From the IMG/VR virus record IMGVR_UViG_2693429768_000005: DNA of 55,692 nt; one strand, written 5' to 3'. Both the position numbers and the translations under genes were made by a program. This DNA is from a virus. Its lineage: Duplodnaviria > Heunggongvirae > Uroviricota > Caudoviricetes. Below, one piece after another: positions 5,655 to 50,611 of the stretch; position 1 is the stretch's first letter; the number at the start of each line of letters is the position of its first letter. Below the pieces are notes generated by a model, which was given only the letters and a program-made list of their open reading frames with translations, was not told the DNA's origin and made no database searches.

Positions 5655-8600
5655 TTACCATGATCCGGTAATTCGTCCAATTTGGACGCGCAACCTACCG
5701 TTTCCATCCCTAACGGAAATGGTTGTATTTGTTAGTTTCATCGCGCCCTCACCACTTACAGAACCGTAGTTTTCAAATGTGCCTGATTTATCCAGCTTCC
5801 AGCCTGTGCTATTGGAAACATAGTTGTTTGATTGAATGTATGAACCAATTTTTGCATTAGTGATTGACGCGTCTTTAATAAACGCCTCGCGCACATACAT
5901 TGCACCGTTAGACACATAGAAAGGCGTTGTATATGTGCCGTTTGCTGCGGTCATCAATACGAAGCGGTCAACGAGGAAAATACACTGCGATTGAACGTTA
6001 GTACCGCTGCCAGTTAAACCAAGTGACATACCTGTTGCGTATTTCATGCCGTTGTTGTCGGTTGCCAGCTTGATGGAGTACGTCGCATCAACATTACCTT
6101 TGAAGTCGGTTAACGCTTTTGACGTCGTTTCTATTGCCGTTGTGTTCCCGTTAACGGTCACTGTTAGCTGATCGATTTTGCTTGATAATGCCTCGTCAGC
6201 CGTAGCCATTGCCTGCGACCATTCTGTAATGTTTGAGTTTACAGAATCGAAAGACGCTGAGATCTGGCCAAATTTTTCCGCGCTTGACGCTTCATGCGTA
6301 GAAAGCGCCGTTGATACTTCAGACACCTTAGAGTTAATCGTACTGGTAAGCGATGAGTTAAGACTACTTATCGCGTCAGTGCGTGCCTTCGTTTCGTCTG
6401 CAATGGCCTTGTCGATACGGGTCACGTTGCTTGTAACCTTGCCATCAAGGGTTGAAATTGACGCATTTACGCCACTGATAGCTTGAGCGCGGGCGCTTGA
6501 CTCGTCAGCAATAGCCTGGTCCAAGCGTTTGACGCTGGCGTTTGTGTTACTTTCGAGCGTTGTTAAATCAGCTTTGACCTCTGTTATTGCGTCGCTTCTT
6601 GCCTGCGTTTCGTCAGATATTGCCTTATCAAGTCTGCTAACGCTGGCGTCTGTTTTGCTTTCAAGATTGCTTATCGAGGCATTCACGCCGCTGATAGCCT
6701 GAGCGCGGGCGCTCGTTTCGTCGGCGATAGCTTGATCAAGGCGGTTAACGCTGGCGTCGGTTTTCTTGTCGAGATCGCTTATTGATGCGTTCACGTTGTT
6801 AATTGCTTCAGCGCGGGCACTTGTTTCGTCTGCTACTGCGCGTTCCACGCTGGAAATCTGACCTTTAAGGTTGGAATCCATCGTGTTCATTTCTGCCGTG
6901 ATGGTTTTCAGCGATTCAGCCGTGGCCTTTTTCTCTTCAGCAATAACGTTGTCAATGCGGTCAATTTGCGCGTTTGTTTCTGATTGCCCTTTCTTGTATT
7001 GTGCAGTGAGCGTAACCCGCGTGTTGGTCTGCGCGAGCGAGTTATTAATCAGCGCCAAAGATGCGTTTTGCAGGCTTGCTTTTGCTTGCGCCAGTTCGCT
7101 GTCGATTCTTTCGCTGGATACCTCTAGCGAGTCAATTCTTACCTCATGTTGTCCAATACCATCGGTGTTTTCCCCAACCTTTTTATAAAGATCTTCCGTT
7201 TCTTTTTTCAGTGTGTCCGTATCAGCTTTTATGGCCCCCGTTTCTGTGATTAGGCCGTCCGTGTCAGTCCTCAAATCTTCAGTGATGTTTGTCAGGTTAT
7301 CGGTTGCAGTTTTGAGGCTGTCAGTAGCGTTTTTAAGGTCATTTGTAGCGCTTTCGATAAGGTCTGCACGGTCGCCTAGATCTTTAATGTCGCCAATCAT
7401 CCCTTTAAACTGTTCTGAATTAATCACGTCTTTTGTGACGTAGTCGCTGATTTCATCGAAGTTTTCAGTCGGTTTGCCGGATGCTTCAACGAAGTCTGAC
7501 ACACCAAAGGCATTACGCGTGCGCACATAAACGTAATAGGTGTGGCCCGTATTCATGCCGCCGAAAGTCCATTGGTAGCCGCGCCCGGTGAACTGTGCCA
7601 GCGTGGTTACTTTTGATGGGTCCGTGATCTGGTTTTCACCTGAGAAGTAGAACTCATATGCCGTATCAGTGGTCAGGGTTGTTTTGCTGATCGGGTACAC
7701 TGTTGCCTGGAAAACACCTGGAACCCAATTAACTCCAATCGGGGCCGCTGGCGCACCAATAACCAGGTCCACAATACTTTCCGCACCCTTCATGCCAGTG
7801 TCATTACGACCGCGAATACCAAGCGTGTAGCTGCCAGCATCAAGGCCATAAAAATCATAGCGGTAATTCGTTGTTTCATAAGCTGCCACCACGCGGCCTT
7901 CTGCGTTATATGCGCGGATCTCAAAGGTCAGGCGATGCGTTGTCGTCTGTGTTTCCCATGTAGCTCGACATTGAACAGTTTCAGAACCAACATTTAACAC
8001 CTTCAGGTTTTCAATGTTCGGCACGCGGAAGTGATTAAGCGTGTCGTTGTTTACCTCAAAGATTGCGCCTTCATCAACTACAGCCTGTTTGTGAGGATCA
8101 TGCTGTGCCGCCTCGATGGTGTACACGCTGTTATTTTCGGTTTCCGCTACGCTGGTGATTCGACACAGGACAGGTTTCGCGGATTCAGTTGATACGGCGA
8201 ATACGGTCCCGTTACGAATCCATGCGGGCGCCGCCGCAAGGGTAATATTGTTTCCGTCAACTCCAGTGATCTGATGTTTTTTAAACTTGCCGTCGCTGTC
8301 CAGTAAGCTGATAGTGTCACCAGCCGCCACCAGGTCAGAATCAACCTTGTCTACAGTTATCACTTTCCCGTTATTCGCCACGATGCGACCGCCCAAACGA
8401 GCGCCAGCGCGGTTATTGTCGAGTATCTCGATAATATCCCCGGGTGTGAAGTGAATTGCGTCACGGGCCATTTTAAACGTGAATTTTGAGGGTTCGCGTT
8501 TTGCTGTTTCTATCAGCCATTTGCCAGCGCGGTACGCCTGCCCGCGTGACGTGCAACCAAAAGCCTCTAACGTGGTTTCGTTGTAACCATCGCGGGCGAT

Positions 8601-9869
8601 CAGTTCGTCATCTGCCACGTATTCTTTTGATTGTTCCCAACCGTTTTCCGGGTCAGTCCATGACACGATCACGGCGTTGTAAGATTCTGCGCGGGCGATA
8701 CTTGAGCGAGTGAACGCGCCATCAACGACGTTAGCATTCGTTATGGTAGCAATTGGATCCTGCGGCGCATCAATCATCACAGTAAGGCGCTGCCCGTCCC
8801 ATAACGCGATACCACGGAACATGCCTGCAATGTTGTCCAGCAAGTCGCGGGCGCTCATTTGCTCCGTGATGTAAGCGTTAAGCGTCATGCGTGGTTCAAG
8901 GCCACCGTAACCGTCGTTCACCAACTGGTCGCAGTATTGAGAAAGCGTATACAGTGCGCCATCATCAACGTCGATGTAACCAGCGTGGCGGGCAAGCCCG
9001 AAGCGTTCATTTTTCACCAGATACCGGAAAAGCCATGCAGGGTTATTGGTGTATGCCTTTTTAAAGCCACCAAGCCATAAGCCTGAGTATGTGCGCGTTT
9101 CCGGGTCGTAGTTATCAGGCACATCAACAATCAGACCACGCATGTGATAGGTGCGTGTCGGCGTGTCAGTATACTGATCGTGGTCAATTACCGCGCCAGC
9201 GACAGCGGTATGAGGATAAGACAAGTTATCGTCGATTATCTCGCTGTAACTGCTCCACCTGGTGTCATTGCGAAGTAGATCGCTTTTGCTGTCTGGCGTT
9301 ACGCGACGAACGCGAATATCAAACGGTTTTTCATCCGGTGCCTGGATGATATGCGCTTCCATGTACTCGCCGCTTTGCTTACCTGGGCCAATGTGAATAT
9401 CCTTAACCAGTGACCAAGATGTTGATGATGAAGGCTTAACGTCAACCATCAACGTGACTGATGTATTGTATTGATTGCCCTTATCATCTGACTGAACCAG
9501 AGAATCAACGCCAAGATTCAGCCTTACGCGGTTAACGTTTGGATCTGAAACAGTCCTGATTATCGGCGTATCGTGAGTTACTTTTGCGTTTACAATAACG
9601 GTTGATTCAATGGCGTTGAAGCCGTTGATTGGTGACTGGTCAGCCGTACCATTACGCCACGCCACGCTAACGCCTGAGACTGATGTACCGCCGTTGGCGT
9701 CAGTGATTGGGCTGTCATTAAGCATTACGCTGTTTAATGGCGCTTTCTGGTTTACAGGTCCGTAGATTGGGCCTTCGCTGAGAATATCCAAAACACGATA
9801 AAACTGTTTATGAAACAGGTTATCGTTTAATAATGTTGGTGTTTTGGCTTTGCCGCCGCCGCTACTCAT
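5655..9869 (-). CDS. J: central tail fibre / host-specificity protein (lambda gpJ-like) with C-terminal coiled-coil repeat region
   Basis: 1404 aa; N-terminal two thirds align by eye to lambda J (TP..NL...EGPIxGPV...RMTPDS...FGCTSRGQA.RAGKWLI); C-terminal third diverges. Confidence 0.9.
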   Translation of the reverse strand: MSSGGGKAKTPTLLNDNLFHKQFYRVLDILSEGPIYGPVNQKAPLNSVMLNDSPITDANGGTSVSGVSVAWRNGTADQSPINGFNAIESTVIVNAKVTHDTPIIRTVSDPNVNRVRLNLGVDSLVQSDDKGNQYNTSVTLMVDVKPSSSTSWSLVKDIHIGPGKQSGEYMEAHIIQAPDEKPFDIRVRRVTPDSKSDLLRNDTRWSSYSEIIDDNLSYPHTAVAGAVIDHDQYTDTPTRTYHMRGLIVDVPDNYDPETRTYSGLWLGGFKKAYTNNPAWLFRYLVKNERFGLARHAGYIDVDDGALYTLSQYCDQLVNDGYGGLEPRMTLNAYITEQMSARDLLDNIAGMFRGIALWDGQRLTVMIDAPQDPIATITNANVVDGAFTRSSIARAESYNAVIVSWTDPENGWEQSKEYVADDELIARDGYNETTLEAFGCTSRGQAYRAGKWLIETAKREPSKFTFKMARDAIHFTPGDIIEILDNNRAGARLGGRIVANNGKVITVDKVDSDLVAAGDTISLLDSDGKFKKHQITGVDGNNITLAAAPAWIRNGTVFAVSTESAKPVLCRITSVAETENNSVYTIEAAQHDPHKQAVVDEGAIFEVNNDTLNHFRVPNIENLKVLNVGSETVQCRATWETQTTTHRLTFEIRAYNAEGRVVAAYETTNYRYDFYGLDAGSYTLGIRGRNDTGMKGAESIVDLVIGAPAAPIGVNWVPGVFQATVYPISKTTLTTDTAYEFYFSGENQITDPSKVTTLAQFTGRGYQWTFGGMNTGHTYYVYVRTRNAFGVSDFVEASGKPTENFDEISDYVTKDVINSEQFKGMIGDIKDLGDRADLIESATNDLKNATDSLKTATDNLTNITEDLRTDTDGLITETGAIKADTDTLKKETEDLYKKVGENTDGIGQHEVRIDSLEVSSERIDSELAQAKASLQNASLALINNSLAQTNTRVTLTAQYKKGQSETNAQIDRIDNVIAEEKKATAESLKTITAEMNTMDSNLKGQISSVERAVADETSARAEAINNVNASISDLDKKTDASVNRLDQAIADETSARAQAISGVNASISNLESKTDASVSRLDKAISDETQARSDAITEVKADLTTLESNTNASVKRLDQAIADESSARAQAISGVNASISTLDGKVTSNVTRIDKAIADETKARTDAISSLNSSLTSTINSKVSEVSTALSTHEASSAEKFGQISASFDSVNSNITEWSQAMATADEALSSKIDQLTVTVNGNTTAIETTSKALTDFKGNVDATYSIKLATDNNGMKYATGMSLGLTGSGTNVQSQCIFLVDRFVLMTAANGTYTTPFYVSNGAMYVREAFIKDASITNAKIGSYIQSNNYVSNSTGWKLDKSGTFENYGSVSGEGAMKLTNTTISVRDGNGRLRVQIGRITGSW
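6360..6900 (-). repeat. in-frame tandem ~105-bp repeats inside J encoding reiterated coiled-coil units
   Basis: protein repeats of the type DASVxRLDQAIADETSARAQAISGVNASIS.L..KT at least five times; DNA repeats visible (gcgcgggcgct...gcgatagc..g.tc.a.gcg.tt.acgctggcg). Confidence 0.6.
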
Positions 9870-11794: not shown

Positions 11795-11892
11795 TTTATC
11801 ACCTTGTCATTTTGTGATCGCCATCACGCTAAATCATGCCAAAACGGTTGATCGCGTTTTTTACAATATGTATATTGTACTCAAAAGGAAGC

Positions 11893-12078
11893 ATGGTTAA
11901 CAAAATGGCGCGGAGGTGTGAAATGGATGATAAGGTGTGGAGGTTGGCGGTGTTCCTTGCGGATGGCAGGAAAATGACTGTGGCCCTGTATAAAGATGAA
12001 GGCGAGGCACTTACCGACGCGCTCTTACTCGCTGAAGACGAACGCGTTTTGGGGTACAGAATCGAACCTGTCAAATGA
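11893..12078 (+). CDS. hypothetical moron protein
   Basis: ORF on opposite strand to tail operon, SD-like AAGGAAG before ATG; part of cassette with own terminator. Confidence 0.35.
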   Translation: MVNKMARRCEMDDKVWRLAVFLADGRKMTVALYKDEGEALTDALLLAEDERVLGYRIEPVK

Positions 12079-12090
12079 GAGGTTAACGAA

Positions 12091-12438
12091 ATGCAAAAAT
12101 ATAGTCTTGATGTGTGGTTAAGTGGTTGCAAGGAGTGTTTCGGATTATTTGATAGCGAAGAGGCAGCTTTGGAAGAAGGAAGGATTCTTGAATGTAGTTT
12201 AGGCCATCCAGTGAAATATGCCGCTAATCCGGTGCAGATAATTGATGAGGTGGAAAACATGAATCCGAAAGATATTAACTTTAACGTCAATGTTGAATTT
12301 GCTGATTCTATGGATCAGTCTTGCCCTGGTGAAATACACGCAAAAGGTTTCCCGGCAGACGATCCGCAAGCAAAACGCGAATACGAAAAAGCTGCGAAAG
12401 ACTTCTGTATCGACAATTTGTCTGCGTTCGATAAATAA
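12091..12438 (+). CDS. hypothetical moron protein (115 aa, Cys-containing, acidic)
   Basis: ORF with GAGAGG SD; no recognisable domain. Confidence 0.4.
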   Translation: MQKYSLDVWLSGCKECFGLFDSEEAALEEGRILECSLGHPVKYAANPVQIIDEVENMNPKDINFNVNVEFADSMDQSCPGEIHAKGFPADDPQAKREYEKAAKDFCIDNLSAFDK

Positions 12439-12447
12439 GGCGACAAC

Positions 12448-12696
12448 ATGGGGCGGCGCAATCACGGTGATTATGTGTACACGTTGAAACAGGCCGCCCG
12501 CCTCGTTGGTTATCATGAACACGAATTTATTGATTTGCTGATTGAGCGCGGGATACTGTACCAGGTATGTTTAACGCTGTACCCTAAAGCGAAATATCTA
12601 CAGGAAAAGTTATTCATCATCATGACGGATGAAAACCAGGTTAATCATTCATTCGTCACGGATAAGGGCGTTAATTATCTGCGTGATAACTTATAG
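12448..12696 (+). CDS. hypothetical moron protein (82 aa, possible HTH)
   Basis: ORF following previous with 9-bp gap; segment LKQAARLVGYHEHEFIDLLIERGIL resembles a DNA-binding helix pair. Confidence 0.4.
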   Translation: MGRRNHGDYVYTLKQAARLVGYHEHEFIDLLIERGILYQVCLTLYPKAKYLQEKLFIIMTDENQVNHSFVTDKGVNYLRDNL

Positions 12697-12827: not shown

Positions 12828-12860
12828 AACCCCGCTTCGCGCGGGGTCGTGTTTATACGC
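12828..12860. terminator. bidirectional rho-independent terminator
   Basis: CCCCGCTTCGCGCGCGGGG hairpin with T-rich tracts on both strands; ends plus-strand moron and the minus-strand M unit. Confidence 0.55.
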
Positions 12861-13050
12861 CATCAACCAAAAATAAAACCTCCTTCCCTTCCCGGGATCT
12901 ACACCCCACGTACCCATCGCCAACGTCGTGAAGATACCATATATCGCCGTTGTCAGCTTTTACAGTAAGGTCGTTGATCTCATAGTCGTCAAACAATGTA
13001 AAAGCGTAAGTTTTGTCAACTACACAAGTCCCGTACATATCAACCCCCAT
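12853..13050 (-). CDS. hypothetical protein (65 aa) downstream of M
   Basis: ORF starting at the M stop; no domain recognised. Confidence 0.35.
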   Translation of the reverse strand: MGVDMYGTCVVDKTYAFTLFDDYEINDLTVKADNGDIWYLHDVGDGYVGCRSREGKEVLFLVDGV

Positions 13051-13403
13051 TAGCCGACAACTTGTTCAAACGTTGCGTTTAGCGTGTACACAGGCCCGTC
13101 TTTAGTCATGCTCCAGCTACGGCAAACAAAAAGCCTTTGCACGTTATCCATCGACGGCGTCCAGTAGAAAGCCTCGACAGCGCCGCGCGCCCTCAAAAAT
13201 GCTTCAGCCTGGATCGCCACGTTTCCACCATCACCACATCCCGCGCTACTGCCTTTGAAAACCAGGGTATAGCTATCAAGCAACGTGTTAATCCCTTTTG
13301 CCTGCCTTTGTTCATAGTTGTCGCCAAGTTTAATCACAGAAACGTTAGGTTCTCTCGTTACCGTGTAGCTTCTTTGTGGTTTCCATATAAAAACTTCTGG
13401 CAT
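13050..13403 (-). CDS. M: minor tail protein M
   Basis: C-terminus ...FYWTP...TFEQVVG resembles lambda gpM (...FLWTP...EFEQVVN); start set at internal ATG. Confidence 0.75.
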   Translation of the reverse strand: MPEVFIWKPQRSYTVTREPNVSVIKLGDNYEQRQAKGINTLLDSYTLVFKGSSAGCGDGGNVAIQAEAFLRARGAVEAFYWTPSMDNVQRLFVCRSWSMTKDGPVYTLNATFEQVVG

Positions 13404-13416
13404 AATACCCACCTCA

Positions 13417-13890
13417 TTACTTGCCGTGATTTTCAAAATATCCATAGCGCAATTCGGCTTCTTTCCTTGCGGCTATGGCGTCACCTACATTTGAATATCG
13501 CCCTACAGCTATTTGCTTCCCGTGGTCGTATATTCTTACAACCCACTTATTGCGCGCCTTATCCCAAGAAATGCCGTTTAATCCGCTTTTATTTGTGCTG
13601 CGCAATGATTGATTCACTGCGTTACCTCTATGTGTAACTAGTCGTAAGTTTTCGATTGCGTTATTTAGTCTGTTGTGATCGATGTGGTCTACCTCCATTC
13701 CTTCTGGTATCGAGCCGTTGTGCATTTCCCATATGATGCGATGCACTTTATGACTCCTGCCGTTAGCCCACACCCGCAAGTATCCATCCGAAGTAAGGCC
13801 ACCCGCGCGATCACCAGCGTGATGCTGGGAGTTTTTTGTCTTCCAATAAATTTCACCTTCTTGATAGTGGAAAATGTCGTTCCAGTTCAT
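13417..13890 (-). CDS. HNH homing-type endonuclease with AP2 DNA-binding domain
   Basis: 157 aa; motifs HRIIWEMHNGSIPEGMEVDHIDHNRLNN (HNH) and GISWDKARNKWVVRI...AVGRY...AIAARKEAE (AP2-like). Confidence 0.8.
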   Translation of the reverse strand: MNWNDIFHYQEGEIYWKTKNSQHHAGDRAGGLTSDGYLRVWANGRSHKVHRIIWEMHNGSIPEGMEVDHIDHNRLNNAIENLRLVTHRGNAVNQSLRSTNKSGLNGISWDKARNKWVVRIYDHGKQIAVGRYSNVGDAIAARKEAELRYGYFENHGK

Positions 13891-13917
13891 AACTTCACTC
13901 TCATAAGTTACATATTG

Positions 13918-13955
13918 TATACATCTTTACGCGTTTCTACGCGAAAAATGAGAAA
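13918..13955. repeat. 34-bp conserved element, copy 1 (tandem TACGCG repeats)
   Basis: ATACATCTTTACGCGTTTCTACGCGAAAAATGAGAAA; near-identical copy at 26524-26560. Confidence 0.5.
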
Positions 13956-14061
13956 TTCATCACAAGAATTATAACCAGTTTACAAAATGGCTTCACATAA
14001 GGCGTGACAAGATGTATATAGTAAGCAAGAAGAAAAAGCAGTACCGACAAAGGGGGACAAT

Positions 14062-14217
14062 ATGGAACGCTATGTGGTTGTGATGCTGAACAAAGCATTC
14101 GAACAGGTGGAAGTTGCGATTGTGAAGGGCTTTGATGATGCATTCAAATACGGTCAATTCATGATGAATGCGAAGGAAAACGAGTACCGTGATTTCTTCC
14201 TGAAAGTGGTCAACTAA
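14062..14217 (+). CDS. hypothetical moron protein (51 aa)
   Basis: ATG after AAAGGGGGACAAT; opposite strand to tail operon. Confidence 0.35.
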   Translation: MERYVVVMLNKAFEQVEVAIVKGFDDAFKYGQFMMNAKENEYRDFFLKVVN

Positions 14218-14235
14218 TGGATTGTGGGGTGTGTT

Positions 14236-14490
14236 ATGAAATTGGTGGCGATTGGTAAAAACTTGAAAGCACAGAAAAACGCACAGGACCGGATCATCAA
14301 AAAGGGCAAGGCTTTATTAAATGCTTTCCTGAGAAAAGAGGCCACCCCCAAAAAATTACGCGATGGCTACGGTTATAAATTTGATATTAACCCCGACTGG
14401 CGGTTATTCAGCGAAGATTTAAAGGCGTGGTTAATTATCGACCATCTGGAATATAACAGACACTGTGGGGTTAAAGGGGCGCATAAGTAA
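14236..14490 (+). CDS. hypothetical moron protein (84 aa, basic)
   Basis: ATG after GGGGTG; followed by terminator. Confidence 0.4.
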   Translation: MKLVAIGKNLKAQKNAQDRIIKKGKALLNAFLRKEATPKKLRDGYGYKFDINPDWRLFSEDLKAWLIIDHLEYNRHCGVKGAHK

Positions 14491-14598
14491 GGCGGGCATG
14501 AAGGGCGATAAATTCACCCGGCGGGGAACTGGAATGTTTGACAGGTAATTTTGGATAGGGTGTATCGCGCGGAATGGTTGTTTATAAATACGAAAATA

Positions 14599-14635
14599 GC
14601 CCCGGCATTGTACCGGGGTTTGGTTTATTTGCGGC
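14599..14635. terminator. bidirectional rho-independent terminator between moron and tape-measure gene
   Basis: CCCCGG-cattgta-CCGGGG hairpin with TTTGGTTTATTT on plus and T-rich tract on minus. Confidence 0.6.
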
Positions 14636-17600
14636 GAGGTTGCAACATTCCTCCCGGTCTGGATGATTCGCGGTGTATCAGGCCCATACAGATCTTTTCC
14701 ATATCCTGCTGTAGTTTTTTGGCGTCCTCATCACTCCATCCATTTTGTGGGTAAACACTAATCGGTGCGTTTATACTAACGTTACCGCCGCCCGCACCAC
14801 CAATGTCGCGATTTGATATTATCCTGCCGTTGTCACCCGGAATCATGTACTGCTCGCCGTTTCGAGATTGGAAGATCTCTGGCTTGCCGTGCTCGCCAAC
14901 CCTATAAAGATTGCCGCCATTAACCGCGCCGCCGTTATAGCGAGCACCCGCCAGGCCAAGCGCTTTTGCCCCAGCTAATCCGGTAGCCATCGCCGCTGAC
15001 CCCGCCGTCGCTGCGCCGCCCATTGTTGCCACGCTTGCCAGGTATGCCGGGGTGGACCATGCAGAACTTAACGCCACCGCCTCGCCCATTGCCTTTGCTG
15101 TTGCGGCGGCACTGGCAGCCTCCCCTATTAATTGCTGCTTGACCCATTCAGCGCCCATCTGAACAAGCGTACCGATCACGGATGACAGAATTGTATTGCC
15201 AATGTTAGCAAGCGCCTGTTGCCAACTCTGAGTGCCGTTAACCAGTCCGACAAGCGCGTTTGTTGCGGAACCACTCATTGCATCAACAGTATCACCTAAC
15301 AATTGGTTGCTCATTGACTGCGCTTTATATCGTTCCCATTCAAGGGAAAGCATTTCCTGTGCGTGCGCTTTTTCTTGCTCCCTCATATATTGCTCGGTAG
15401 CGCCTAAATCGGTAAGCATTTGTTTGCGAACAGCCCATTCGTTTTGCGCCTGCTGGATTGGGTCTACCTGCCCGCGCACTTGTAGCTCTTTGTTTACCAG
15501 ATTATCCCAGCTAGCCTGACGTTTGCGTTGTTCCTCGGTTCCAATTAATTCTTTCCATGCCTTATTGTATTGTTCCGCGCTTATTTTCCCGCTTTTAAGT
15601 GCGGCGTTTAGCGCCTCCTGATCCTCTTTTAATTTCCGTTGTGCTGCAGCTTCTACGTTGTATTTGTCTGCAACATTCTGGCCCCGCTTCTCAAGCTCTT
15701 TGCGCAGGCGTTCAGCCTCTTTTAGACGTTTTTTCTCCTCGCTTTCCCCATGACTGGCCTTTCTTTCAGCTTCGGCGCGTTTCTGCTCGGTGTCGTATGC
15801 TTTGGTCATTGTAGCCATGTATTTTTCATACGCTTCCCCGGTCAGGTTTGCTTTCTCAGCCTCACGCTTAAACCCATCAATCGCCTTTTCCCTGCTGGCT
15901 GTTTTGGAGTCGAGTTTTGCCAGTTCCAGGCGGCGGTTTGCCAGATCCATTAGCTCTTGCTGATCTGCGTTAAGTGCGGCTGAAGCGTGTTGCGTTGCTG
16001 CTGCTGCGCGTTCTGCTTCTGTGGTGATTCTTCCGTATGCGTCTGCCACCAACCCTAATGAAGTGGCAAGGGTCTTCATTAGCGGATCTGTATCCTGCAT
16101 AAGCAAAATATATTTGCGCTGCATTTGATTAAGGCGGTCGAGAATATCCTCACGCTGCGCCTCTTCCCTGGTCAGGCGGGCTGTGATTTCCTGATTAGCT
16201 TTCGATAGGTTGGCGTAAGCGCGTGACCCCTCCTCTGCTTTCTCCAGTGCCTGTTTATTCAGCTCTAGCGCCTGCGTGTCCTGGTCAATCTGTTTGTTGA
16301 GACTGACAACGTCTTCCTCTAACTGACCCATTGATATTTGTAGTTTATCTGCGCCAGCCAGTTTAGCCGCCTTGCTCATTCGCTCCAGTGATTCGGTACT
16401 AACATCCACTGAATCAGCAAGGTTGCGGTTTGCCTCTGCCGTTTGATCTACGTGATCTACATATGCTGTCAACCCGTAAACAGCAAGCATTAACGCGCCA
16501 GGGATACCACCAATCGCGCCCAGAGTAGCGCTAAATGCTGTTTTTAGTAGTCCCGCATTAGTCGCCGCCGCAGTGTGGGCCGCAGCAAGGCGCTGCTCTG
16601 CCGCAGTAAGGGCGTTTGATGCCGCCGTGTTCTGTGCTTTGGCTACAGCCAATTCTTTCAGCGTCTGAACTTCGAATTTTGTTCCGGCGTTTGCCGCAGC
16701 ATAAGCCTGCGCCTCTCTCAGCCTTGCCGCCGCCGCCGCTGCTGATTGCCGTGCTGATACCACCTGAGCGTTAGCTAGCGCCAATTCACTCTGAGCGGCC
16801 TGCCGTGCCGCTGCCGTTTGTGCCCTGGTTGCCTGAGCGTTAGTTAATGCCTCTGCTGTTGCAGCTACGAATTTATTTACCACTCTGCCACCCATCACAG
16901 TGGCAAGGCCAATAAATGCAGTAGCTATTTCGTTAAGGTTTTCTGACAGGGTTACAACTGCCGAATTAAAAGCACCAATCCCGCCCATAATTGACGAATT
17001 GCTGCCGAAAAATTTAGCTGCGTTGTTGCCTGCAACAGTGAAAGCCTCCTGCATAGTTGGGGTGAGTTTAGAAAACTCAGCATCAACCTCCGCTTTCATT
17101 TCCTTAAGGGCTTTAATGATAGCTTCACGGGTGATCTTCCCTTCTGCTGCCATCTTGCGCATTTCTGCCGACGATACGCCCAATGATTTAGCCAAACCCT
17201 CTGACAGCCTGGTAGCGTTTTCTGTAACGGAGTTAAATTCATCGCCATTCAAAACACCTTTGGCGAGGGATTGACCCAACTGACGGATCCCGCCTTCTGC
17301 TTCAGCGGCAGAAGCGCCAGAAATGCGGAATGTTTTGTTAATGGTTTCAACCATATCACCAAGTGCTTGCGTCGATAAACCAGCGTCGCGCGTCGAGCGC
17401 TCTAATTTACCGTAAAGATCTGCCGTAGCATCAAGATCGCTTCGTGAATTTTGCGCGATCTGAAATACACGCTGATTAACGTCTGCCAGTGATTCACCAG
17501 CACGAACGCTATTGATTAGCCTGTTATTCACCTCCTGCCAGGCGTTTGCATACTCAATGATTTTTTTTGCTGCCATTGCAGCACCCAGGGCACTGGCAAT

Positions 17601-17768
17601 CGAGGATAGCTTTGACAGTGACTTACTTGCCTGAGTGGCGGCACTATCCACGCGCTCCAAATCCTTTTCCATTTTGCCAGTTGCGCGATCTACCTCGCGC
17701 TGAACAGTCAGAAGCTGACCCGTTTTTGCATCAACCTCGTAATAAATTGTGCCTAAATTTGTTGACAT
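14625..17768 (-). CDS. H: tail tape measure protein
   Basis: 1047 aa, Ala/Gln-rich coiled-coil-like protein upstream of M-L-K-I-J; typical tape-measure composition. Confidence 0.9.
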   Translation of the reverse strand: MSTNLGTIYYEVDAKTGQLLTVQREVDRATGKMEKDLERVDSAATQASKSLSKLSSIASALGAAMAAKKIIEYANAWQEVNNRLINSVRAGESLADVNQRVFQIAQNSRSDLDATADLYGKLERSTRDAGLSTQALGDMVETINKTFRISGASAAEAEGGIRQLGQSLAKGVLNGDEFNSVTENATRLSEGLAKSLGVSSAEMRKMAAEGKITREAIIKALKEMKAEVDAEFSKLTPTMQEAFTVAGNNAAKFFGSNSSIMGGIGAFNSAVVTLSENLNEIATAFIGLATVMGGRVVNKFVAATAEALTNAQATRAQTAAARQAAQSELALANAQVVSARQSAAAAAARLREAQAYAAANAGTKFEVQTLKELAVAKAQNTAASNALTAAEQRLAAAHTAAATNAGLLKTAFSATLGAIGGIPGALMLAVYGLTAYVDHVDQTAEANRNLADSVDVSTESLERMSKAAKLAGADKLQISMGQLEEDVVSLNKQIDQDTQALELNKQALEKAEEGSRAYANLSKANQEITARLTREEAQREDILDRLNQMQRKYILLMQDTDPLMKTLATSLGLVADAYGRITTEAERAAAATQHASAALNADQQELMDLANRRLELAKLDSKTASREKAIDGFKREAEKANLTGEAYEKYMATMTKAYDTEQKRAEAERKASHGESEEKKRLKEAERLRKELEKRGQNVADKYNVEAAAQRKLKEDQEALNAALKSGKISAEQYNKAWKELIGTEEQRKRQASWDNLVNKELQVRGQVDPIQQAQNEWAVRKQMLTDLGATEQYMREQEKAHAQEMLSLEWERYKAQSMSNQLLGDTVDAMSGSATNALVGLVNGTQSWQQALANIGNTILSSVIGTLVQMGAEWVKQQLIGEAASAAATAKAMGEAVALSSAWSTPAYLASVATMGGAATAGSAAMATGLAGAKALGLAGARYNGGAVNGGNLYRVGEHGKPEIFQSRNGEQYMIPGDNGRIISNRDIGGAGGGNVSINAPISVYPQNGWSDEDAKKLQQDMEKICMGLIHRESSRPGGMLQPRRK

Positions 17769-24261: not shown

Positions 24262-25148
24262 TCTTCGCCATATTTAGCGTGCGCAACCTTATAGTTTTCT
24301 TGCGCCCGTTCTAATATTCGTTTGTTTAATATATTACCGTCTTCGTCAACTAATACGGTAATAGTGCTGCATTTGCAGTTAATTGAATTAGGGGATCTAC
24401 TCCACCATTCGCGCTGCTCTTCTATGGTGTATGTTTTCCCGTGTCGCTGTGCGTGTGATAGCCTGGTAGTCGGTGACAATGCCGAAATGTGCATTTGCAT
24501 AGTGCGCAAGTTAAGCTCATCCGATGCGGCTTCTGCCTCATCCATACGCGCTGTGCGTAACGCTGTGCATATTTCAGTACGGGCAATACGTTTGCACCTG
24601 TATAGCGGTAATTGCGTTTCCTGCTGCAATGTGCGCGCTATTTCTAGTGGGTTTAGGCCACGGGCCATGCCTTCGGTTAATCGGCGGGCCATATCCTTCT
24701 TGATCTGTGCGGTAAGCCCGCGCATCTCTTCAAATACACGGGTACGAACCAGGGCAAGGCGTGTGCGATATGTCTGACTGGTTAATACCGCAGACACTTC
24801 AGGGTAAGCCCTGGAATATGTGACTGACTGGTTAGCGAGGTTGGCATATTCCTGAGAAGTGCCGCGCTGATATGCCACCTTCACGTATTCCTGCCAGAAC
24901 CAGAAGTTTTCCGGGTCTGTTAACTCGAATATTTCATCAATCATGTCGCTGGCGTCTTCCAGCAAATCATGTAATTCGTCGATGTAGATCTGGAAGGTGT
25001 ATTTTTTATTAACAGCCAGGGTATATTGTATTCTGTCCAGTATGGCGATATATGGATCGGCTACTTTCTTCAGGCAGGCTTTAAAACGCTTGATAGCACC
25101 AGACCTTAACTTCCCTGTCATGGTCGGGTCTTCGGTGTTAGATGGCAT
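24252..25148 (-). CDS. head morphogenesis protein (Mu F-like)
   Basis: start set at ATG overlapping portal stop; family recalled from memory. Confidence 0.6.
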   Translation of the reverse strand: MPSNTEDPTMTGKLRSGAIKRFKACLKKVADPYIAILDRIQYTLAVNKKYTFQIYIDELHDLLEDASDMIDEIFELTDPENFWFWQEYVKVAYQRGTSQEYANLANQSVTYSRAYPEVSAVLTSQTYRTRLALVRTRVFEEMRGLTAQIKKDMARRLTEGMARGLNPLEIARTLQQETQLPLYRCKRIARTEICTALRTARMDEAEAASDELNLRTMQMHISALSPTTRLSHAQRHGKTYTIEEQREWWSRSPNSINCKCSTITVLVDEDGNILNKRILERAQENYKVAHAKYGEDWE

Positions 25149-26508
25149 TATCGCGGCTGGAGGTATTCGCCTGATTATCTTCTTCACCCTCATCATCGTC
25201 CTCCTCTTCCGTTTCTACTTCACTGGCTGGGCCATCGTATCCGGCAGCCTCGCGGATCTCGTCACCGCTAAATATTTCTTCACCAGTAGCCAGACAAGCC
25301 TGATTGATTTGTGCCATTTTGTCTGCGGCTTCCAGTAGCTCTGCTTTGGTCATGGCGTTAAGGTCGTCCCATAGCACTGATACATCTACTGGCATACTGA
25401 TAAGGCGTAGATCTGCCATCTTGCGGAACAGATCTTCAATCTCGCCACCGATTTCCTCCCTGCGGGTCATGCAGCGGCTGTTGAAGTAACGCAGGTCTTC
25501 GGTTGATGCACGCTCTCCCTGTTGGTTCCCAACCAGGATGCGGGTTGGAATATCAACACCAGCGGCGGCGGTTTGCAGGTTTACATCATAGGTTGATGAC
25601 GGGTCAGACACGGCAGTAACCAGCGGGCTTACTGTCGCACCCTGTAACGCCATCATTACGTCATTACCCTTATTCATTTCAGCCGTAGCCTCATTGAATC
25701 TTTCGCGTAACTCTGTAACGTCGCAATCGTATGTTGCAGCCAGGGAACGGAAGTCAATCTCTTTATCGAACGAAATAGCAAGCTGACGCGCTGCGTTTTT
25801 CAGGAATGATTCACCACTACCGCCTTCCACTTTTTCCAGTGATACGAATGCGTTGTAGGAAGGTTCAAGGAAAGCGATGACATCATCAGAATAGTCGCCA
25901 AAGATGAATATGCGGTCAGGGTGGATCTTTCTGGCAATGGTCTTACTGTTAATGCGTTCTTTGTATTCCCACCATGTCGGCAGGCCATAATTTTCACTGT
26001 CCGGGTCTTCTTCGAACTCCTTCGGTGTAAGAGCGCCAGCCCACACAGGGGTAAATTTGGCAATACCTACGCCTTTTGTCACTGGCTGATCCCACGGCTG
26101 GTTATCTCTGACATGAATCAACAGACCAGCATAACGACCAATGAGGCGGCGGCGATCACATTCAGCAACAGTGCGCCAAAATCTGTTGTTAAATTTCTTC
26201 TTGATTTCTCTTTCCCACGGTGTTTCCTTTTTCGCTTTCTCGTCTTCAGTTCCCTCAATCATCTTTGGCTTGGTGCGCCAGCAAGTCGTAACAATCTTTT
26301 CTACAGCACCGTGAGCGATGCCGCCGCGTCTGTACAGTTTGTATAGATCGTGGTACGTGATCTCTTCTTTGAATCCGTATTCACTCCACGCAGCATCACG
26401 TTTGGCATCTATCCCCATAGTGAATGGGTTGGCTGCGGCATAGCGGGCGTAGGCCGCCTGGCGTTGTGACAAGGCAGCATTAACCGCCAATTCTAAATTG
26501 GATGGCAT
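25138..26508 (-). CDS. portal protein
   Basis: about 456 aa, acidic C-terminus; follows terL; start set at ATG after AGGAG. Confidence 0.7.
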   Translation of the reverse strand: MPSNLELAVNAALSQRQAAYARYAAANPFTMGIDAKRDAAWSEYGFKEEITYHDLYKLYRRGGIAHGAVEKIVTTCWRTKPKMIEGTEDEKAKKETPWEREIKKKFNNRFWRTVAECDRRRLIGRYAGLLIHVRDNQPWDQPVTKGVGIAKFTPVWAGALTPKEFEEDPDSENYGLPTWWEYKERINSKTIARKIHPDRIFIFGDYSDDVIAFLEPSYNAFVSLEKVEGGSGESFLKNAARQLAISFDKEIDFRSLAATYDCDVTELRERFNEATAEMNKGNDVMMALQGATVSPLVTAVSDPSSTYDVNLQTAAAGVDIPTRILVGNQQGERASTEDLRYFNSRCMTRREEIGGEIEDLFRKMADLRLISMPVDVSVLWDDLNAMTKAELLEAADKMAQINQACLATGEEIFSGDEIREAAGYDGPASEVETEEEDDDEGEEDNQANTSSRDNAI

Positions 26509-26523
26509 AATGTTTACTCCTGA

Positions 26524-26560
26524 ATACATGTTTACGCGTTGCTACGCGAAAAATAGAAAA
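26524..26560. repeat. 34-bp conserved element, copy 2 (tandem TACGCG repeats)
   Basis: ATACATGTTTACGCGTTGCTACGCGAAAAATAGAAAA between terL and portal. Confidence 0.5.
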
Positions 26561-26586
26561 ACTTGTGGGGGATTGTGGGATGGTTT

Positions 26587-28071
26587 TTAAAATCCGCGCA
26601 GGCGCTTCGGTAACATGAGGCCTATCGCCTGTGGCTGGCTTAGTTCGGTAATACCCCATACCATTGCGTCCATACGGTCAGGGGATTTTTTAGCGGTGGC
26701 TGGCACATATTCCATCATTTGATTTTCCAGCGTGTACAGGCTGCCAGTGTGGGCCACCCTTCCCTGCGCATATAGTGCCGATATTGGCTCTGCACGGGCG
26801 AATTTACCTTTGCTTGCGTGCACCTTAACAATGCGGCCTTTGAATCCGGCATTGCGTAGCGTGGCCTCTGCCATGTCACCGCCCTGGTTGGTTTCGATAA
26901 CCATCGCGTCAGCTTCATGGATGTCATATGCTTTCATGGATGCTTGCGCCCAGTCGTTAGGCGACATGCGGCCTGAATAGTCACCATCAACAGAATACTG
27001 AGCATTCTTACCGCCACCATATGCGGAACACGCCACGATCCCCGTTTCGTCAGATTCATCAGATGACGTTGTCGCCGGGTCGATGGCTATTACCGTGCGG
27101 ATCTTGTCCTGCGTTATCTGCATCCGGTGCGCTGCGGTTATCATCGCTTCAGTCCACAATGCACCCTCTTCGTCGAATTTACGCGGGCGCTGCATGTACT
27201 GGGCCTCAAATGACCGCCTGTGTGCTTTCAGTCCAGCTTCATGGGCGTCATTGTGCTTTTTAGGCCATAGCCAGCCGTCTGGCAGGTTGTGAGGAATAGG
27301 GATAGCGAACTCGTTTTCAGGATACAAATCCCGGTAGTCAACGCTGTTGTCGATCTTCACTGGCAGGTTCAGGTGATACCATTTCTCCCCGCTTCCACCA
27401 CGTAGCAGGTAGCCGGACAAATCATCGTAGTGGATGCGCTGCATGATGACGATAACAGGCGTCGTTTGCACTGCCAGACGTGAAGCAAGCGTGTCGTTAT
27501 AGTTAGTGTTTACCTGCTTTCTCACCACGTCAGAGTAAGCGTCGGCGGGCTTTAATGGGTCGTCGATGATTAACGCGCCGTTAAATCCTGGTTCCATATA
27601 CCCCGCACGGAACCCAGTAACCTGGCCAAGCGATGAAGTTGCATACACGCCGCCACCGTATTCAGTCCACCACATCGATTTTGAGTTTGCATCGTTGCGG
27701 ATCTTCATGGGCCACATTGCCTGATACTCAGGCGTACAGATCATGTTTCTTACAGTTGAGGAGTTGAGTAGCGCCAGGTTGTTGGAATAGGAAACGTGAA
27801 GGAATCGTGTGCGGGGATTTATTGCGAGGGACCGCGCCATCATATTGATAGTAGCGATCATGGTTTTGCCGTACCCTGGGGGGATGTTGATGATGAGTCG
27901 GGTTATCTCACCATTGACAACGCGTTGTAGTGCGTCGCGGATAGCTAAATGATGGCCTGAGATTAACATCTTCGTTCCGTTCGCTTGCTTGTAAAAGTAG
28001 CGATTGAAAAACAGGCCATCGTTTTCACATTTGGACTGAATAACTCGTTCTTTGATTGTCAGCATAATCAC
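26587..28071 (-). CDS. terminase large subunit
   Basis: 494 aa; Walker A-like IPPGYGKT; ATPase-nuclease architecture. Confidence 0.9.
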   Translation of the reverse strand: MIMLTIKERVIQSKCENDGLFFNRYFYKQANGTKMLISGHHLAIRDALQRVVNGEITRLIINIPPGYGKTMIATINMMARSLAINPRTRFLHVSYSNNLALLNSSTVRNMICTPEYQAMWPMKIRNDANSKSMWWTEYGGGVYATSSLGQVTGFRAGYMEPGFNGALIIDDPLKPADAYSDVVRKQVNTNYNDTLASRLAVQTTPVIVIMQRIHYDDLSGYLLRGGSGEKWYHLNLPVKIDNSVDYRDLYPENEFAIPIPHNLPDGWLWPKKHNDAHEAGLKAHRRSFEAQYMQRPRKFDEEGALWTEAMITAAHRMQITQDKIRTVIAIDPATTSSDESDETGIVACSAYGGGKNAQYSVDGDYSGRMSPNDWAQASMKAYDIHEADAMVIETNQGGDMAEATLRNAGFKGRIVKVHASKGKFARAEPISALYAQGRVAHTGSLYTLENQMMEYVPATAKKSPDRMDAMVWGITELSQPQAIGLMLPKRLRGF

Positions 28072-28553
28072 ACCTCATCTTCTACTTCCTGAACGATGCG
28101 GGCGATTTCTTCTTTCGTTACTTCCACCTGGACGGGTGCTTCTTCCTTGTTACCTACAATCTCCTGTGTAACGCGTTCACCATATTTGCGCGGTTGCAGT
28201 TTTGCCAATAGCCATTTACGGGTTTCAATCATCAGTTGATGTCTGCGGCATTGGTCTTTATCGGTGTTCTCCGCTGCGTCGGCTATATCGATAATCTCAT
28301 CAGCCAACACCTCAAATCCGATCTCCTTCGCGCGCGCGTACATGGTGGAAAACTCGGGCACATCACGGAACCATTTGAGGATTGTTGAACGGTTCGGCAT
28401 GTCAGGCATCTTCGAGATTTTGTTAATACTCTGACCGTCCGCCACCAGCTCACAGATCTCTAATGCCTTTTCTTCGGTATAGCCATGCGGACGGCCCGTC
28501 TTTTTGGCTGCTGGCTTTTTATCGTCAGCCTTTGCCTTTTTCGTGCGGGCCAT
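28068..28553 (-). CDS. terminase small subunit
   Basis: 161 aa; basic N-terminus and HTH; overlaps terL start. Confidence 0.7.
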   Translation of the reverse strand: MARTKKAKADDKKPAAKKTGRPHGYTEEKALEICELVADGQSINKISKMPDMPNRSTILKWFRDVPEFSTMYARAKEIGFEVLADEIIDIADAAENTDKDQCRRHQLMIETRKWLLAKLQPRKYGERVTQEIVGNKEEAPVQVEVTKEEIARIVQEVEDEV

Positions 28554-36289: not shown

Positions 36290-37011
36290 TATTCACCCCG
36301 TGTCACTCGTTTGATTTCGTTATCAGCCCGCGCCTCTTCTTTGAACAATTCAGCAATGGCGTCTTCATAGAAAGCACGGTATTTCTTCCACCATGTTGAT
36401 CGGCTTACCGGAAAAACAAGCTGATTAACAGCCTGCCGGACAAGATCTACAGGGAAACGCGAGTACCCGCGCCCGCCGCAGTGCTGGCACGTTTTGAACA
36501 CTGGCATTTCCGCCGCTTCACTGGCTGCTTTATCCGGTACTTCGCCACGACCCTTGCATTGTTTACAATGATTGCGAACTGTCCCGTGGCCATTGCATTT
36601 TTTGCAAAGGTGTTTTTCTCCGTAGTCGTCAAACGTAAATTTATATCCGCCGCACTCCATACAGGTTTTTTCCGTCGCGGCGCTTTGGCAATAATCCCGA
36701 AACGCGAAAACGGCAACAAGAATAATAAGATCATTGCGTTTGGCCTCGTCCAGTTCCATAACGTATTCATAATCTTTTGCCATAGCTCTTAAACGCTCTG
36801 TAAGCAAAACTACGGCCTTATGTTTTTCTGCTTGTGATAGTTCCATCTTCCCTAAAAAAGCGCTGTAGCCAAGCTCTACGCGCGATTGCGCCATACCTGC
36901 AGCAGTTAGTGCATCAGTAGTATTAAGCGCATCCGGGGACGTGCCCCGGCTTTCATCCGACAAACGCGGTGACTTTGGGAAGTGGAATTTAAGAATTGAT
37001 TCCAGGTTCAT
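36289..37011 (-). CDS. Q: late-gene antiterminator Q (lambda type, zinc-finger)
   Basis: N-terminus MNLESILKFHFPKSPRLSDESRGT aligns with lambda Q MRLESVAKFHSPKSPMMSDSPRAT (from memory); CxxC clusters. Confidence 0.85.
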   Translation of the reverse strand: MNLESILKFHFPKSPRLSDESRGTSPDALNTTDALTAAGMAQSRVELGYSAFLGKMELSQAEKHKAVVLLTERLRAMAKDYEYVMELDEAKRNDLIILVAVFAFRDYCQSAATEKTCMECGGYKFTFDDYGEKHLCKKCNGHGTVRNHCKQCKGRGEVPDKAASEAAEMPVFKTCQHCGGRGYSRFPVDLVRQAVNQLVFPVSRSTWWKKYRAFYEDAIAELFKEEARADNEIKRVTRGE

Positions 37012-38390: not shown

Positions 38391-38566
38391 AATGCTCTCT
38401 CCTTTTAAGGTGATTTCTACGCATTTCAGCGCTGCCGGATTTTTAAAGAGCATTTTGTTTGCTTGAAGTATACAAAATGGATACGCCATAACAAGGTGAA
38501 AAGCGCCATTATGTGATCTATATCACGTAATGACGCCATTATGTAAACTTCAGTCCGGCAAAACGC

Positions 38567-39554: not shown

Positions 39555-40077
39555 ATAGCTCTTTACGTGTTATCTGCGTGAAAATACATTCATGTCTGCA
39601 CCGTGGATGCCAGATCAAAAACAAGCTCCCTTTGTTGTTTCCGCTCACTGGCTTACCAGTCGCAGCATTTATAAAAGCCAGCCGCCCGCGCGTTATTAAT
39701 CTGCATTCGTTTGCCGTCTCAACGCCGTTCATAAACCAGCTAACAGAAATGTCAGCGGGCAATAACATTACGCAACCGATGTGGTTTCGGCTGTGTTCAA
39801 GCGCCGCTTTATCAACGAATGGCCCCGGGTTCGAATATGGTGGATTCATCCAGACATACTCACCAGGCATTGCCACCGCTCCCCACGGATAATGCAGCGT
39901 GTCCATTTCTTCGGTTATATATCGCGGGATTAATGCGTTTGCCTTGTTTGCCGCCACGTCAGCGACAAATTCAAACTCACGATCCATTCCTCTAAAAACT
40001 GGTTTAGGTGTCTGCCACAGGTCTTTAATTTCCTTCGGCGTACTGCTGCCTCCAAAATCATTTTTCATTATGACCAC
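39529..40077 (-). CDS. phage DNA N6-adenine methyltransferase (Dam-like)
   Basis: 182 aa; motif VWMNPPYS (NPPY catalytic motif). Confidence 0.8.
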   Translation of the reverse strand: MVIMKNDFGGSSTPKEIKDLWQTPKPVFRGMDREFEFVADVAANKANALIPRYITEEMDTLHYPWGAVAMPGEYVWMNPPYSNPGPFVDKAALEHSRNHIGCVMLLPADISVSWFMNGVETANECRLITRGRLAFINAATGKPVSGNNKGSLFLIWHPRCRHECIFTQITRKELYARGAEND

Positions 40078-45430: not shown

Positions 45431-45521
45431 TCCATTTTGTATACTTTTTTAAAACATTTTATATGTTATTGATATTTAAACAATAAATAACGTTTTCTGT
45501 TTACGTTTTGGTGCTTTCATG

Positions 45522-46201: not shown

Positions 46202-46506
46202 GTCGCTACCCTATAACCTCAAAAAGTTTGATGCAAGTCACAAAACGTGTATTTTAAGCCTTGATCTTAAAATTCCATTTTGTAAACTTGCAGACAAGGT
46301 AAGGCCATACTTGCAAAGACGCAAGGAAAAAGATAACGGAAGGCACAAAAAGGCACATACCTTAAGCTCTTTAAAAATCCGGTGTCGCTGCGAAGCGAAA
46401 AACAAATATCACGCAACGGCGGGATCTGTTGAGCGGTCAGTCACTGCTATCTAATGCTAATGGGATGCCCGCCCGCGCGTTCATTTTAACCATAGGAGAA
46501 AATACA

Positions 46507-50577: not shown

Positions 50578-50611
50578 ATATTCCATTTTGTAAACCGGAG
50601 GCAATAACATA

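Follow-up and report, generated by a model that had tools for sequence, protein, structure and literature searches.

Stabilizing stem-loops and phage translational operators are known from the ompA 5' hairpin and from the gene 32 and RegA operators of bacteriophage T4. At the DNA level, regulator-dependent late promoters with a dyad near the spacer include promoters of MerR-type spacing and those served by P1 Lpa, P2 Ogr, and Mu C. Free-standing homing endonuclease genes, such as the T4 seg and mob genes and those of the HNH_3-AP2 endonucleases, are found between phage genes, and their products usually cut near the insertion point in the endonuclease-free allele. The mEpimmI phages, described in 2025, are a group of Nus-dependent, non-lambdoid temperate siphophages that were as common as lambdoid phages among the original human faecal isolates, and one of them, mEp021, possesses three nut sites for the antiterminator Gp17 (PMC11893012). 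The genomic account of this family neither describes the element reported here nor defines operator sequences (PMC11893012), and the late gene control of mEpimmI phages is essentially uncharted.

Here we report a short element that occurs twice in the late region of an mEpimmI phage genome, before the portal gene and before the gene of minor tail protein M, and that is under strong purifying selection across the phage family. Like the ompA, gene 32, and RegA sites, it is a putative small hairpin with AU-rich flanks lying just 5' of a ribosome-binding site, with a conserved sequence common to several genes of one regulon; unlike them, it has only two targets, and its sequence is unrelated. Together with an internal promoter, P_M, and an operator-like motif, CATTTTGT, the element offers concrete handles for mapping late regulation in these phages.

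By sequence identity, the window (the whole 55,692-nucleotide stretch of DNA that was analysed) is an mEp021-like (mEpimmI) temperate siphophage: its terS-TerL-portal segment is 90-92% identical to those of Escherichia phages mEp013, mEp010, mEp021, mEp515, mEp044, and mEp554, and 86% identical to that of MagusPhagus. The late genes lie on the minus strand in the order TerS, TerL, portal, head genes, tape measure, M, and L/K/I/J-like tail genes (Table 1). An opposite-strand moron keeps its position in the relatives. A second opposite-strand island (about 11836-12696) is flanked by tail gene L and the 65-aa ORF that follows M, and five tandem 108-bp units, 60-70% identical to each other, occupy positions 6352-6836 within the 1404-aa J-like tail-tip gene (5655-9869).

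Table 1. Features of the window that bear on the repeated element (positions in the window; strand as noted)
Feature	Position	Strand	Remarks
Element copy A	13919-13955	-	covariance-model match 13914-13958
Copy A hairpin	CGCGU 13943-13939; ACGCG 13934-13930	-	loop AGAA 13938-13935
Copy A flanks	U5 run 13948-13944; UAAA 13929-13926	-	
Element copy B	26524-26558	-	covariance-model match 26519-26563
Copy B hairpin	26548-26544; 26539-26535	-	loop AGCA 26543-26540
Putative sigma-70 promoter P_M	-35 GTGAAG 13996-13991; -10 TATAAT 13973-13968	-	17-nt spacer
Predicted moron promoter	TTCACA 13992-13997; TATATA 14015-14020	+	17-nt spacer
Operator-like 14-mer CCATTTTGTAAACT	13977-13990	-	fills P_M spacer; on plus strand abuts -35 of moron promoter
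Further operator-like sites	46275-46288 (+); 38467-38480 (-); 38536-38549 (+); 45432-45445 (+); 50583-50596 (+)		first site: recurrence of CCATTTTGTAAACT, beside CI-like repressor gene
CATTTTGT, examples	4305/4338; 11808/11900; 17782/17811/17837; 33745/33771		
Sf6-type TerS gene	28068-28553	-	
Terminase large subunit (TerL) gene	26587-28071	-	gene upstream of copy B; stop at 26589-26587
Portal gene	25138-26508	-	
Tape measure gene	14625-17768	-	
Minor tail protein M gene (Phage_min_tail)	13050-13403	-	gene after copy A in every relative
HNH_3 + weak AP2 homing-endonuclease gene	13417-13890	-	free-standing
Moron (51-aa ORF + ParE-like toxin, PF24732)	14062-14490	+	between tape measure gene and P_M
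Bidirectional terminator after tape measure gene	14598-14620		in all family members
Bidirectional terminator	12828-12848		closes short unit P_M-(HNH)-M-65-aa ORF
Lambda-type Q gene	36289-37011		PF03589
Candidate pR'-like late promoter	31470-31442 (TTGTAG-17-TAAAAT)	-	AACAAT at 31434-31429; kept in relatives
nutL	46365-46402	+	
nutR2	38452-38415	-	
nutR1	about 45146-45100	-	

A repeat search paired positions 13916-13949 with 26521-26554 over 34 nt at 91% identity (repeat family D15), in agreement with a preliminary description of the same DNA that had noted a near-identical duplicated element at these two sites; 31 of 34 positions are shared. The 24-nt core TTTACGCGTTKCTACGCGAAAAAT has exactly two matches in the window against 0.00 expected from 100 shuffles. 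A covariance model built from family members and run against the window scored 71.8 bits (E=5e-13) at copy A and 61.5 bits (E=1e-10) at copy B, and with the next match at 16.8 bits (E=0.57) it revealed no further site in the window. Two candidates for additional copies were rejected: a weak model match at 35403-35458 (E=0.57) resembles the element in its flanks only and has no hairpin, and a supposed third copy at 39555-39586, inside a methyltransferase ORF, carries five substitutions and two indels and was missed by the model.

On the minus (coding) strand copy A reads TTTCTCATTTTTCGCGTAGAAACGCGTAAAGATGTAT and copy B reads TTCT-ATTTTTCGCGTAGCAACGCGTAAACATGTAT, with the coding-strand consensus (A/T)TCT(C)ATTTTT-CGCGT-AG(A/C)A-(A/G)CGCG-TAAA(G/C)ATGTAT; written as RNA, the core is UUUUU-CGCG-UAGnnn-CGCG-UAAA. 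The ATG of the HNH gene (13890) follows the end of copy A by 28 nt, and the portal ATG (26508) follows the end of copy B by 15 nt. Two TACGCG hexamers one helical turn apart, also mentioned in the earlier description, are present, their starts being separated by 10 bp. CGCG being palindromic, these bases can equally be read as a 5-bp inverted repeat, CGCGT/ACGCG, round a 4-nt loop.

The relatives examined included seven GenBank phages, 44 IMG/VR contigs, and about 20 metagenome contigs, some 70 in total, all without the HNH gene, and both copies of the element were present in every one of them. Among the IMG/VR loci, the core was matched without gaps at 49 of 49 portal loci and at 42 of 44 M loci, the other two having a 1-nt deletion in the loop, and the arrangement in the roughly 20 metagenome contigs is identical. 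Across the family the distance to the ATG is 16 nt for the portal copy and 26-28 nt for the M copy. A degenerate pattern scan of IMG/VR returned two matches per mEpimmI contig and three unrelated chance matches, while a scan of 185,579 species-representative genomes (GTDB) returned 38 matches in unrelated taxa and contexts, which is about the chance number estimated from the information content of the pattern; the matches outside the family (3 in IMG/VR and 38 in GTDB) are mostly coding. The element is absent from the ES18-like phages SPN3UB and Midgardsormr38, whose portal and M proteins show about 60% amino-acid identity: in SPN3UB the tape measure gene is directly followed by M, and in Midgardsormr38 a small ORF and a terminator-like hairpin precede M and TerL abuts the portal gene. 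A major capsid protein search of genome contigs found no relative. The two matches per mEpimmI contig, the chance level of matches elsewhere, and the absence from these distant phages mark the element as family-specific, with two copies per genome.

Nucleotide diversity (pi) within the core is about 0-0.05 across the 49 portal and 44 M loci, compared with 0.26-0.31 at third codon positions of the adjoining genes and up to about 0.45 in the 14 nt between the -10 box of P_M and the M copy. The (near-)invariant positions follow the pattern A-TTTTT-CGCG-TAG...CGCG-TAAA..T.TAT.CA. Most of the variation falls in the 3' half of the loop, where AGAAG, AGCAA, AGAAA, AGAAT, AGAGG, AGCTA, AGCGA, and one 1-nt deletion were observed.

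The two copies differ in what precedes them. Copy A is found about 18 nt downstream of P_M, a putative promoter recognized from its sequence, whose TATAAT box and -35 region are (near-)invariant in all 44 M loci, and the 14 nt separating its -10 box from the element vary freely. If transcription from P_M starts near position 13961, as predicted, copy A would span approximately +6 to +42 of the transcript and the hairpin approximately +18 to +32. P_M is part of a divergent promoter region that separates the moron from M and is conserved, and its spacer is filled by the operator-like 14-mer, which recurs beside the CI-like repressor gene (Table 1). The 8-mer CATTTTGT occurs 23 times in the window compared with 4.35 expected occurrences and a maximum of 9 in 100 shuffles, and its sites are mostly intergenic, many of them arranged in inverted pairs. 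A longer form, CCATTTTGTAWACT, which fills the P_M spacer next to copy A, also overlaps putative early promoters, some adjacent to the CI-like repressor gene and others just 5' of nutR2. The CATTTTGT motif is probably the operator half-site of a phage regulator, perhaps the repressor; if so, promoters inside the late region would be under common control. As a separate observation, the sequence UGUAACUUAU (13903-13912, minus strand) is located just before the M Shine-Dalgarno sequence, is kept in all M leaders, and contains an ATG-TAA start-stop pair; it resembles UUAACUUUA, the epsilon translational enhancer of T7 gene 10.

Copy B lies within the 79-nt spacer between TerL and the portal gene. 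Upstream of it, homology to the P_M region is present at lower identity (ATTTTAAAATCTGCCTCACAAT vs ATTTTGTAAACTAGCTATAAT), and the P_M-type -10 box has decayed there from TATAAT to CACAAT, or to CACAAC in some genomes. The two copies thus look like an old duplication of about 85 nt that comprised promoter and leader, of which only the leader was strictly kept in both; since the promoter part has decayed at the portal copy, the shared function would need no promoter immediately upstream. An in-frame ATG inside copy B (26529-26527) would extend the portal ORF by seven codons to 463 aa, and the GenBank annotation of the portal start uses this upstream ATG in mEp021 (L001) and the downstream ATG in mEp013. 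An AGGAG located 8 nt before the ATG at 26508 makes the latter the likely portal start. We also considered a leader peptide, as the ATG of the element opens an ORF of seven codons in some M-type copies and shares the reading frame of the portal gene; it is replaced by ATA in many M copies, and therefore a leader peptide is not a shared feature. At the 3' end of the upstream gene, two unrelated TerL gene ends were found in the family (L009, L028, L034, L038, and L039 versus the others), with the mosaic joint at about AAAATCTGCC, immediately 5' of the conserved portal leader.

We propose, with slightly less than even confidence, that the element is a conserved sense-strand RNA stem-loop leader, shared by two late structural genes and acting on the transcript. 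It would serve as a cis-acting leader of the portal gene and the tail-tip gene M in mEpimmI phages, formed in the sense-strand mRNA by U5, a CGCG(U) stem strand, a loop with a conserved 5' UAG, the (N)CGCG stem strand, a bulged U, and AAA, and positioned just 5' of the ribosome-binding region. The M copy would be read from its own promoter P_M, and the portal copy via read-through from TerL. Acting on the whole transcript rather than on a single start codon, the stem-loop may be bound by a shared trans-acting factor, or may function as a processing or stability determinant at the 5' edge of the portal and M messages.

The pattern of conservation is mirror-symmetric, with TTT/AAA and CGCG/CGCG invariant and the variable bases confined to the 3' half of the loop, and a hairpin fits it better than equivalent direct-repeat half-sites do, because the three nucleotides before the first repeat are invariant and those before the second are variable. 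Only two substitutions were found within the CGCG stems; both replace C by U, so that pairing on the sense strand is retained as G-U, and the closing pair is U-A in some sequences and U-G in others. On the other strand, these stem and closing-pair changes would be mismatches. For the 37-nt copy A the folding energy is -11.5 kcal/mol (z = -3.4 vs shuffles), and copy B alone folds no better than shuffled sequence (z = -1.1). In pair counting, 93% of cells are paired, which is no better than in shuffles; 5 of 12 pairs are invariant, wobble-compatible C-to-U or A-to-G changes are the only ones observed in the stem, and compensatory covariation is absent because the stem hardly varies. Extension of the stem by AU pairs is interrupted at pair 12-34 in the portal copy. 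The insertion of the HNH gene in the window parts the element from the M start and leaves its position at the head of the transcript, which fits a role at the transcript level, in this single case.

A more specific version, in which the element belongs to an undescribed post-transcriptional or antitermination circuit that co-regulates the portal, as head nucleator, and M, which completes the tail-tip initiator, is improbable. Such a circuit would employ a dedicated hairpin-binding factor, possibly the N-like Gp17 in a boxA-independent mode, and would add a further tier of late regulation below that of Q. Pfam scans for candidate regulators among the 20 small ORFs that separate Q from the lysis genes and among the early genes gave only CI, the N-like protein, and ERF.

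The stem-loop leaves the invariant positions T36, A39, C42, and A43 of alignment A1, which are outside the hairpin, without explanation, and these fit the pattern of a -10 box and start site. They belong to a DNA-level reading that we regard as possible, albeit rather unlikely, according to which the element is a regulator-dependent internal late promoter or an operator. The layout would be a weak -35 box TTCTCA (columns 5-10 of alignment A1), a -10 box AAANNT (columns 31-36), and a 20-bp spacer in which the dyad TTTCGCG-N6-CGCG(T)AAA forms the binding site of a phage or host regulator, with the invariant C and A at columns 42-43 as positions -1 and +1. The conserved block would then cover approximately -39 to +1 of the hypothetical start; A32 and T36 are invariant while columns 34-35 vary, as expected of a -10 hexamer, and the invariant C42 and the A43 present in at least 90% of the sequences come 7 nt after T36. 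Both copies stand immediately before gene starts, and the two CGCGTA units, in a 10-bp register, are well placed for a protein that contacts the DNA from one face. With promoters of MerR-type spacing and with the P1 Lpa, P2 Ogr, and Mu C promoters the element shares the presence of several copies before the late operons of a genome, a poor -35 box, and a dyad or repeat next to a -10-like element; it differs from them in belonging to a phage with a lambda-type Q antiterminator, in the lack of a T at -12 of its -10-like motif, and in having only two sites.

Against such a promoter, the -35 and -10 boxes are both poor and lack a TG extension, and a lambda-type Q protein together with the pR'-like late promoter should already drive portal and M. 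A perfect TATAAT is already available 45 nt upstream of the M copy, and the leader of the portal message would be only about 13 nt long. The Pfam scan of the 20 small ORFs yielded no activator candidate, and a search of the genome for enrichment of CGCGTA half-sites or degenerate tandem sites found none, and extra half-sites or degenerate copies elsewhere are missing. As a canonical sigma-70 promoter the element was rejected, the best manual fit (TTCTCA, 20-bp spacer, AAAGAT) being weak and a consensus scan reporting neither copy. It was also compared with GTAAA-N5-GTAAA, a CpxR-like box; of the two half-sites only the second fits, and such a box would not account for the invariant CGC in front of each GTA.

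A role at the RNA level is also assumed by the improbable alternative that the element serves as an additional nut-like site, at which the N-like antiterminator Gp17 would recognize the hairpin as it does a boxB and a passing polymerase would become resistant to the late-region terminators at 21432-21412, 14618-14600, and 12848-12828. Terminators do lie downstream of both copies. The boxB hairpins of this phage have short GC stems and purine-rich loops that start with U (CGC-UGAAAU-GCG, CGC-UGCGAA-GCG, and CAC-UGGAA-GUG), and the element, CGCG-UAGAAG-CGCG, has a similar type of stem, with one natural variant having the loop UGGAAG, and the UCUCAUU before the M-type copy resembles the nutR1 boxA GCUCAUU. 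As in the nut sites of lambda type, including those of mEp021, there is a putative short GC-rich RNA hairpin with a purine-rich loop, present more than once per genome and transcribed downstream of a promoter and upstream of terminators. However, the three nut sites of the window, two of which form the 37-nt inverted repeat I1, share the boxA GCTC(T/A)TTAAAAATC and have boxB stems with U-GNRA-type loops, whereas the element lacks both this conserved boxA and the 8-nt spacer and is placed in the late structural operon directly before ribosome-binding sites. Its U-run is preceded only by UCUCAUU (M-type copy) or UUCUAUU (portal copy), directly abutting. Its loops (AGAA, AGCA, or AGAG) are not consistently GNRA: for loops such as UAGAAG, UAGCAA, and UAGAAA a GNRA reading is possible with GCAA, GAAA, and GCGA, but not with the commonest M-type GAAG. 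Moreover, N acts early and the genes behind the element are late, and Q-modified polymerase should already read through these terminators.

The element was also compared with the late promoter of the Q system. The candidate pR'-like promoter is located about 5 kb, or some 20 small ORFs, downstream of the Q gene and is followed by a strong terminator (31414-31396) just before the holin gene; the AACAAT next to it is a -10-like sequence that resembles the lambda pause inducer. As a Q-binding (qut) site the element was rejected, the conserved pR' spacer AAACAAAYAGAT having no equivalent in it, and a resemblance seen in the window, GTAGAGCGC, is not kept in the relatives. Nor is the element an intrinsic terminator: read on the minus strand, its stem is preceded by the U-run and continues into UAAAGAU, on the plus strand it is an A-run that comes after the stem, and a terminator scan of the window flagged neither copy. 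The Rfam 15 covariance models gave no match at the gathering threshold anywhere in the window, and relaxed thresholds gave only chance matches of snoRNA type (E >= 0.25).

The possibility that the element has no function and is an old duplication kept similar by gene conversion appears very remote. Loop variants have been exchanged between the loci: the M-type loop AGAAG occurs at the portal locus in L025 and L052, and the portal-type loop AGCAA occurs at the M locus in L089, which suggests occasional ectopic gene conversion between copies 12.6 kb apart. Conversion within a genome, however, cannot account for a core that is nearly invariant among dozens of diverged genomes whose synonymous sites and neighbouring intergenic bases are free to vary. 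Because the loop types were swapped between loci, the variable loop positions are not read by any factor. From its sequence and distribution, the repeat is real and looks functional; a family-specific cis-regulatory leader would be its ordinary explanation, and the stem-loop mechanism is put forward here as a proposal.

The preliminary description had offered two readings, a late regulatory site and a relic of HNH-associated mobility. The first is retained, as the element is conserved and located before two late structural genes; the second is not, since both copies are present in the HNH-less relatives. Homology of the window to these relatives ends after AACTTAT (13903) and resumes at the M ATG (13403), which identifies the HNH gene as an insertion of about 0.5 kb into the 5' leader of M. 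The inserted block (about 13404-13902) replaces the ancestral Shine-Dalgarno region of M and contains, between the breakpoints, GAGAGTGAAGTT, the HNH ORF, and TAATGAGGTGGGTATT; the element is found on one side of it only. From this structure, the HNH gene is a later insertion behind one copy, and the natural gene after copy A is M, as borne out by the search of related genomes, where copy A precedes M in all HNH-less relatives examined. By the same comparison, the insertion supplied two Shine-Dalgarno sequences, its own and one for M, and is now located behind the pre-existing leader. The HNH junction was found in 0 of 5426 complete E. coli genomes. The encoded protein belongs to a very large family of free-standing phage endonucleases, its best database relative being about 51% identical.

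A derivation of the repeat from the adjacent endonuclease, as its relic or target site, is scarcely credible: the gene was inserted 15 nt downstream of copy A, and a cleavage site could overlap the element by coincidence, but the element occupies both loci in about 70 relatives, none of which has an HNH gene at either locus, and mEp515 and mEp013 have their HNH paralogues at other positions, with an identity of only about 50%. The repeat is a warning that a sequence duplicated beside a mobile gene is not necessarily the footprint of that gene. The HNH gene itself, to which the comparison with the T4 seg and mob genes applies, the element being older than the insertion, is like them a small intergenic insertion with its own Shine-Dalgarno sequence, patchy among relatives and using the expression signals of its host gene, and it provides a case in which a homing endonuclease gene has settled behind an existing leader without destroying it.
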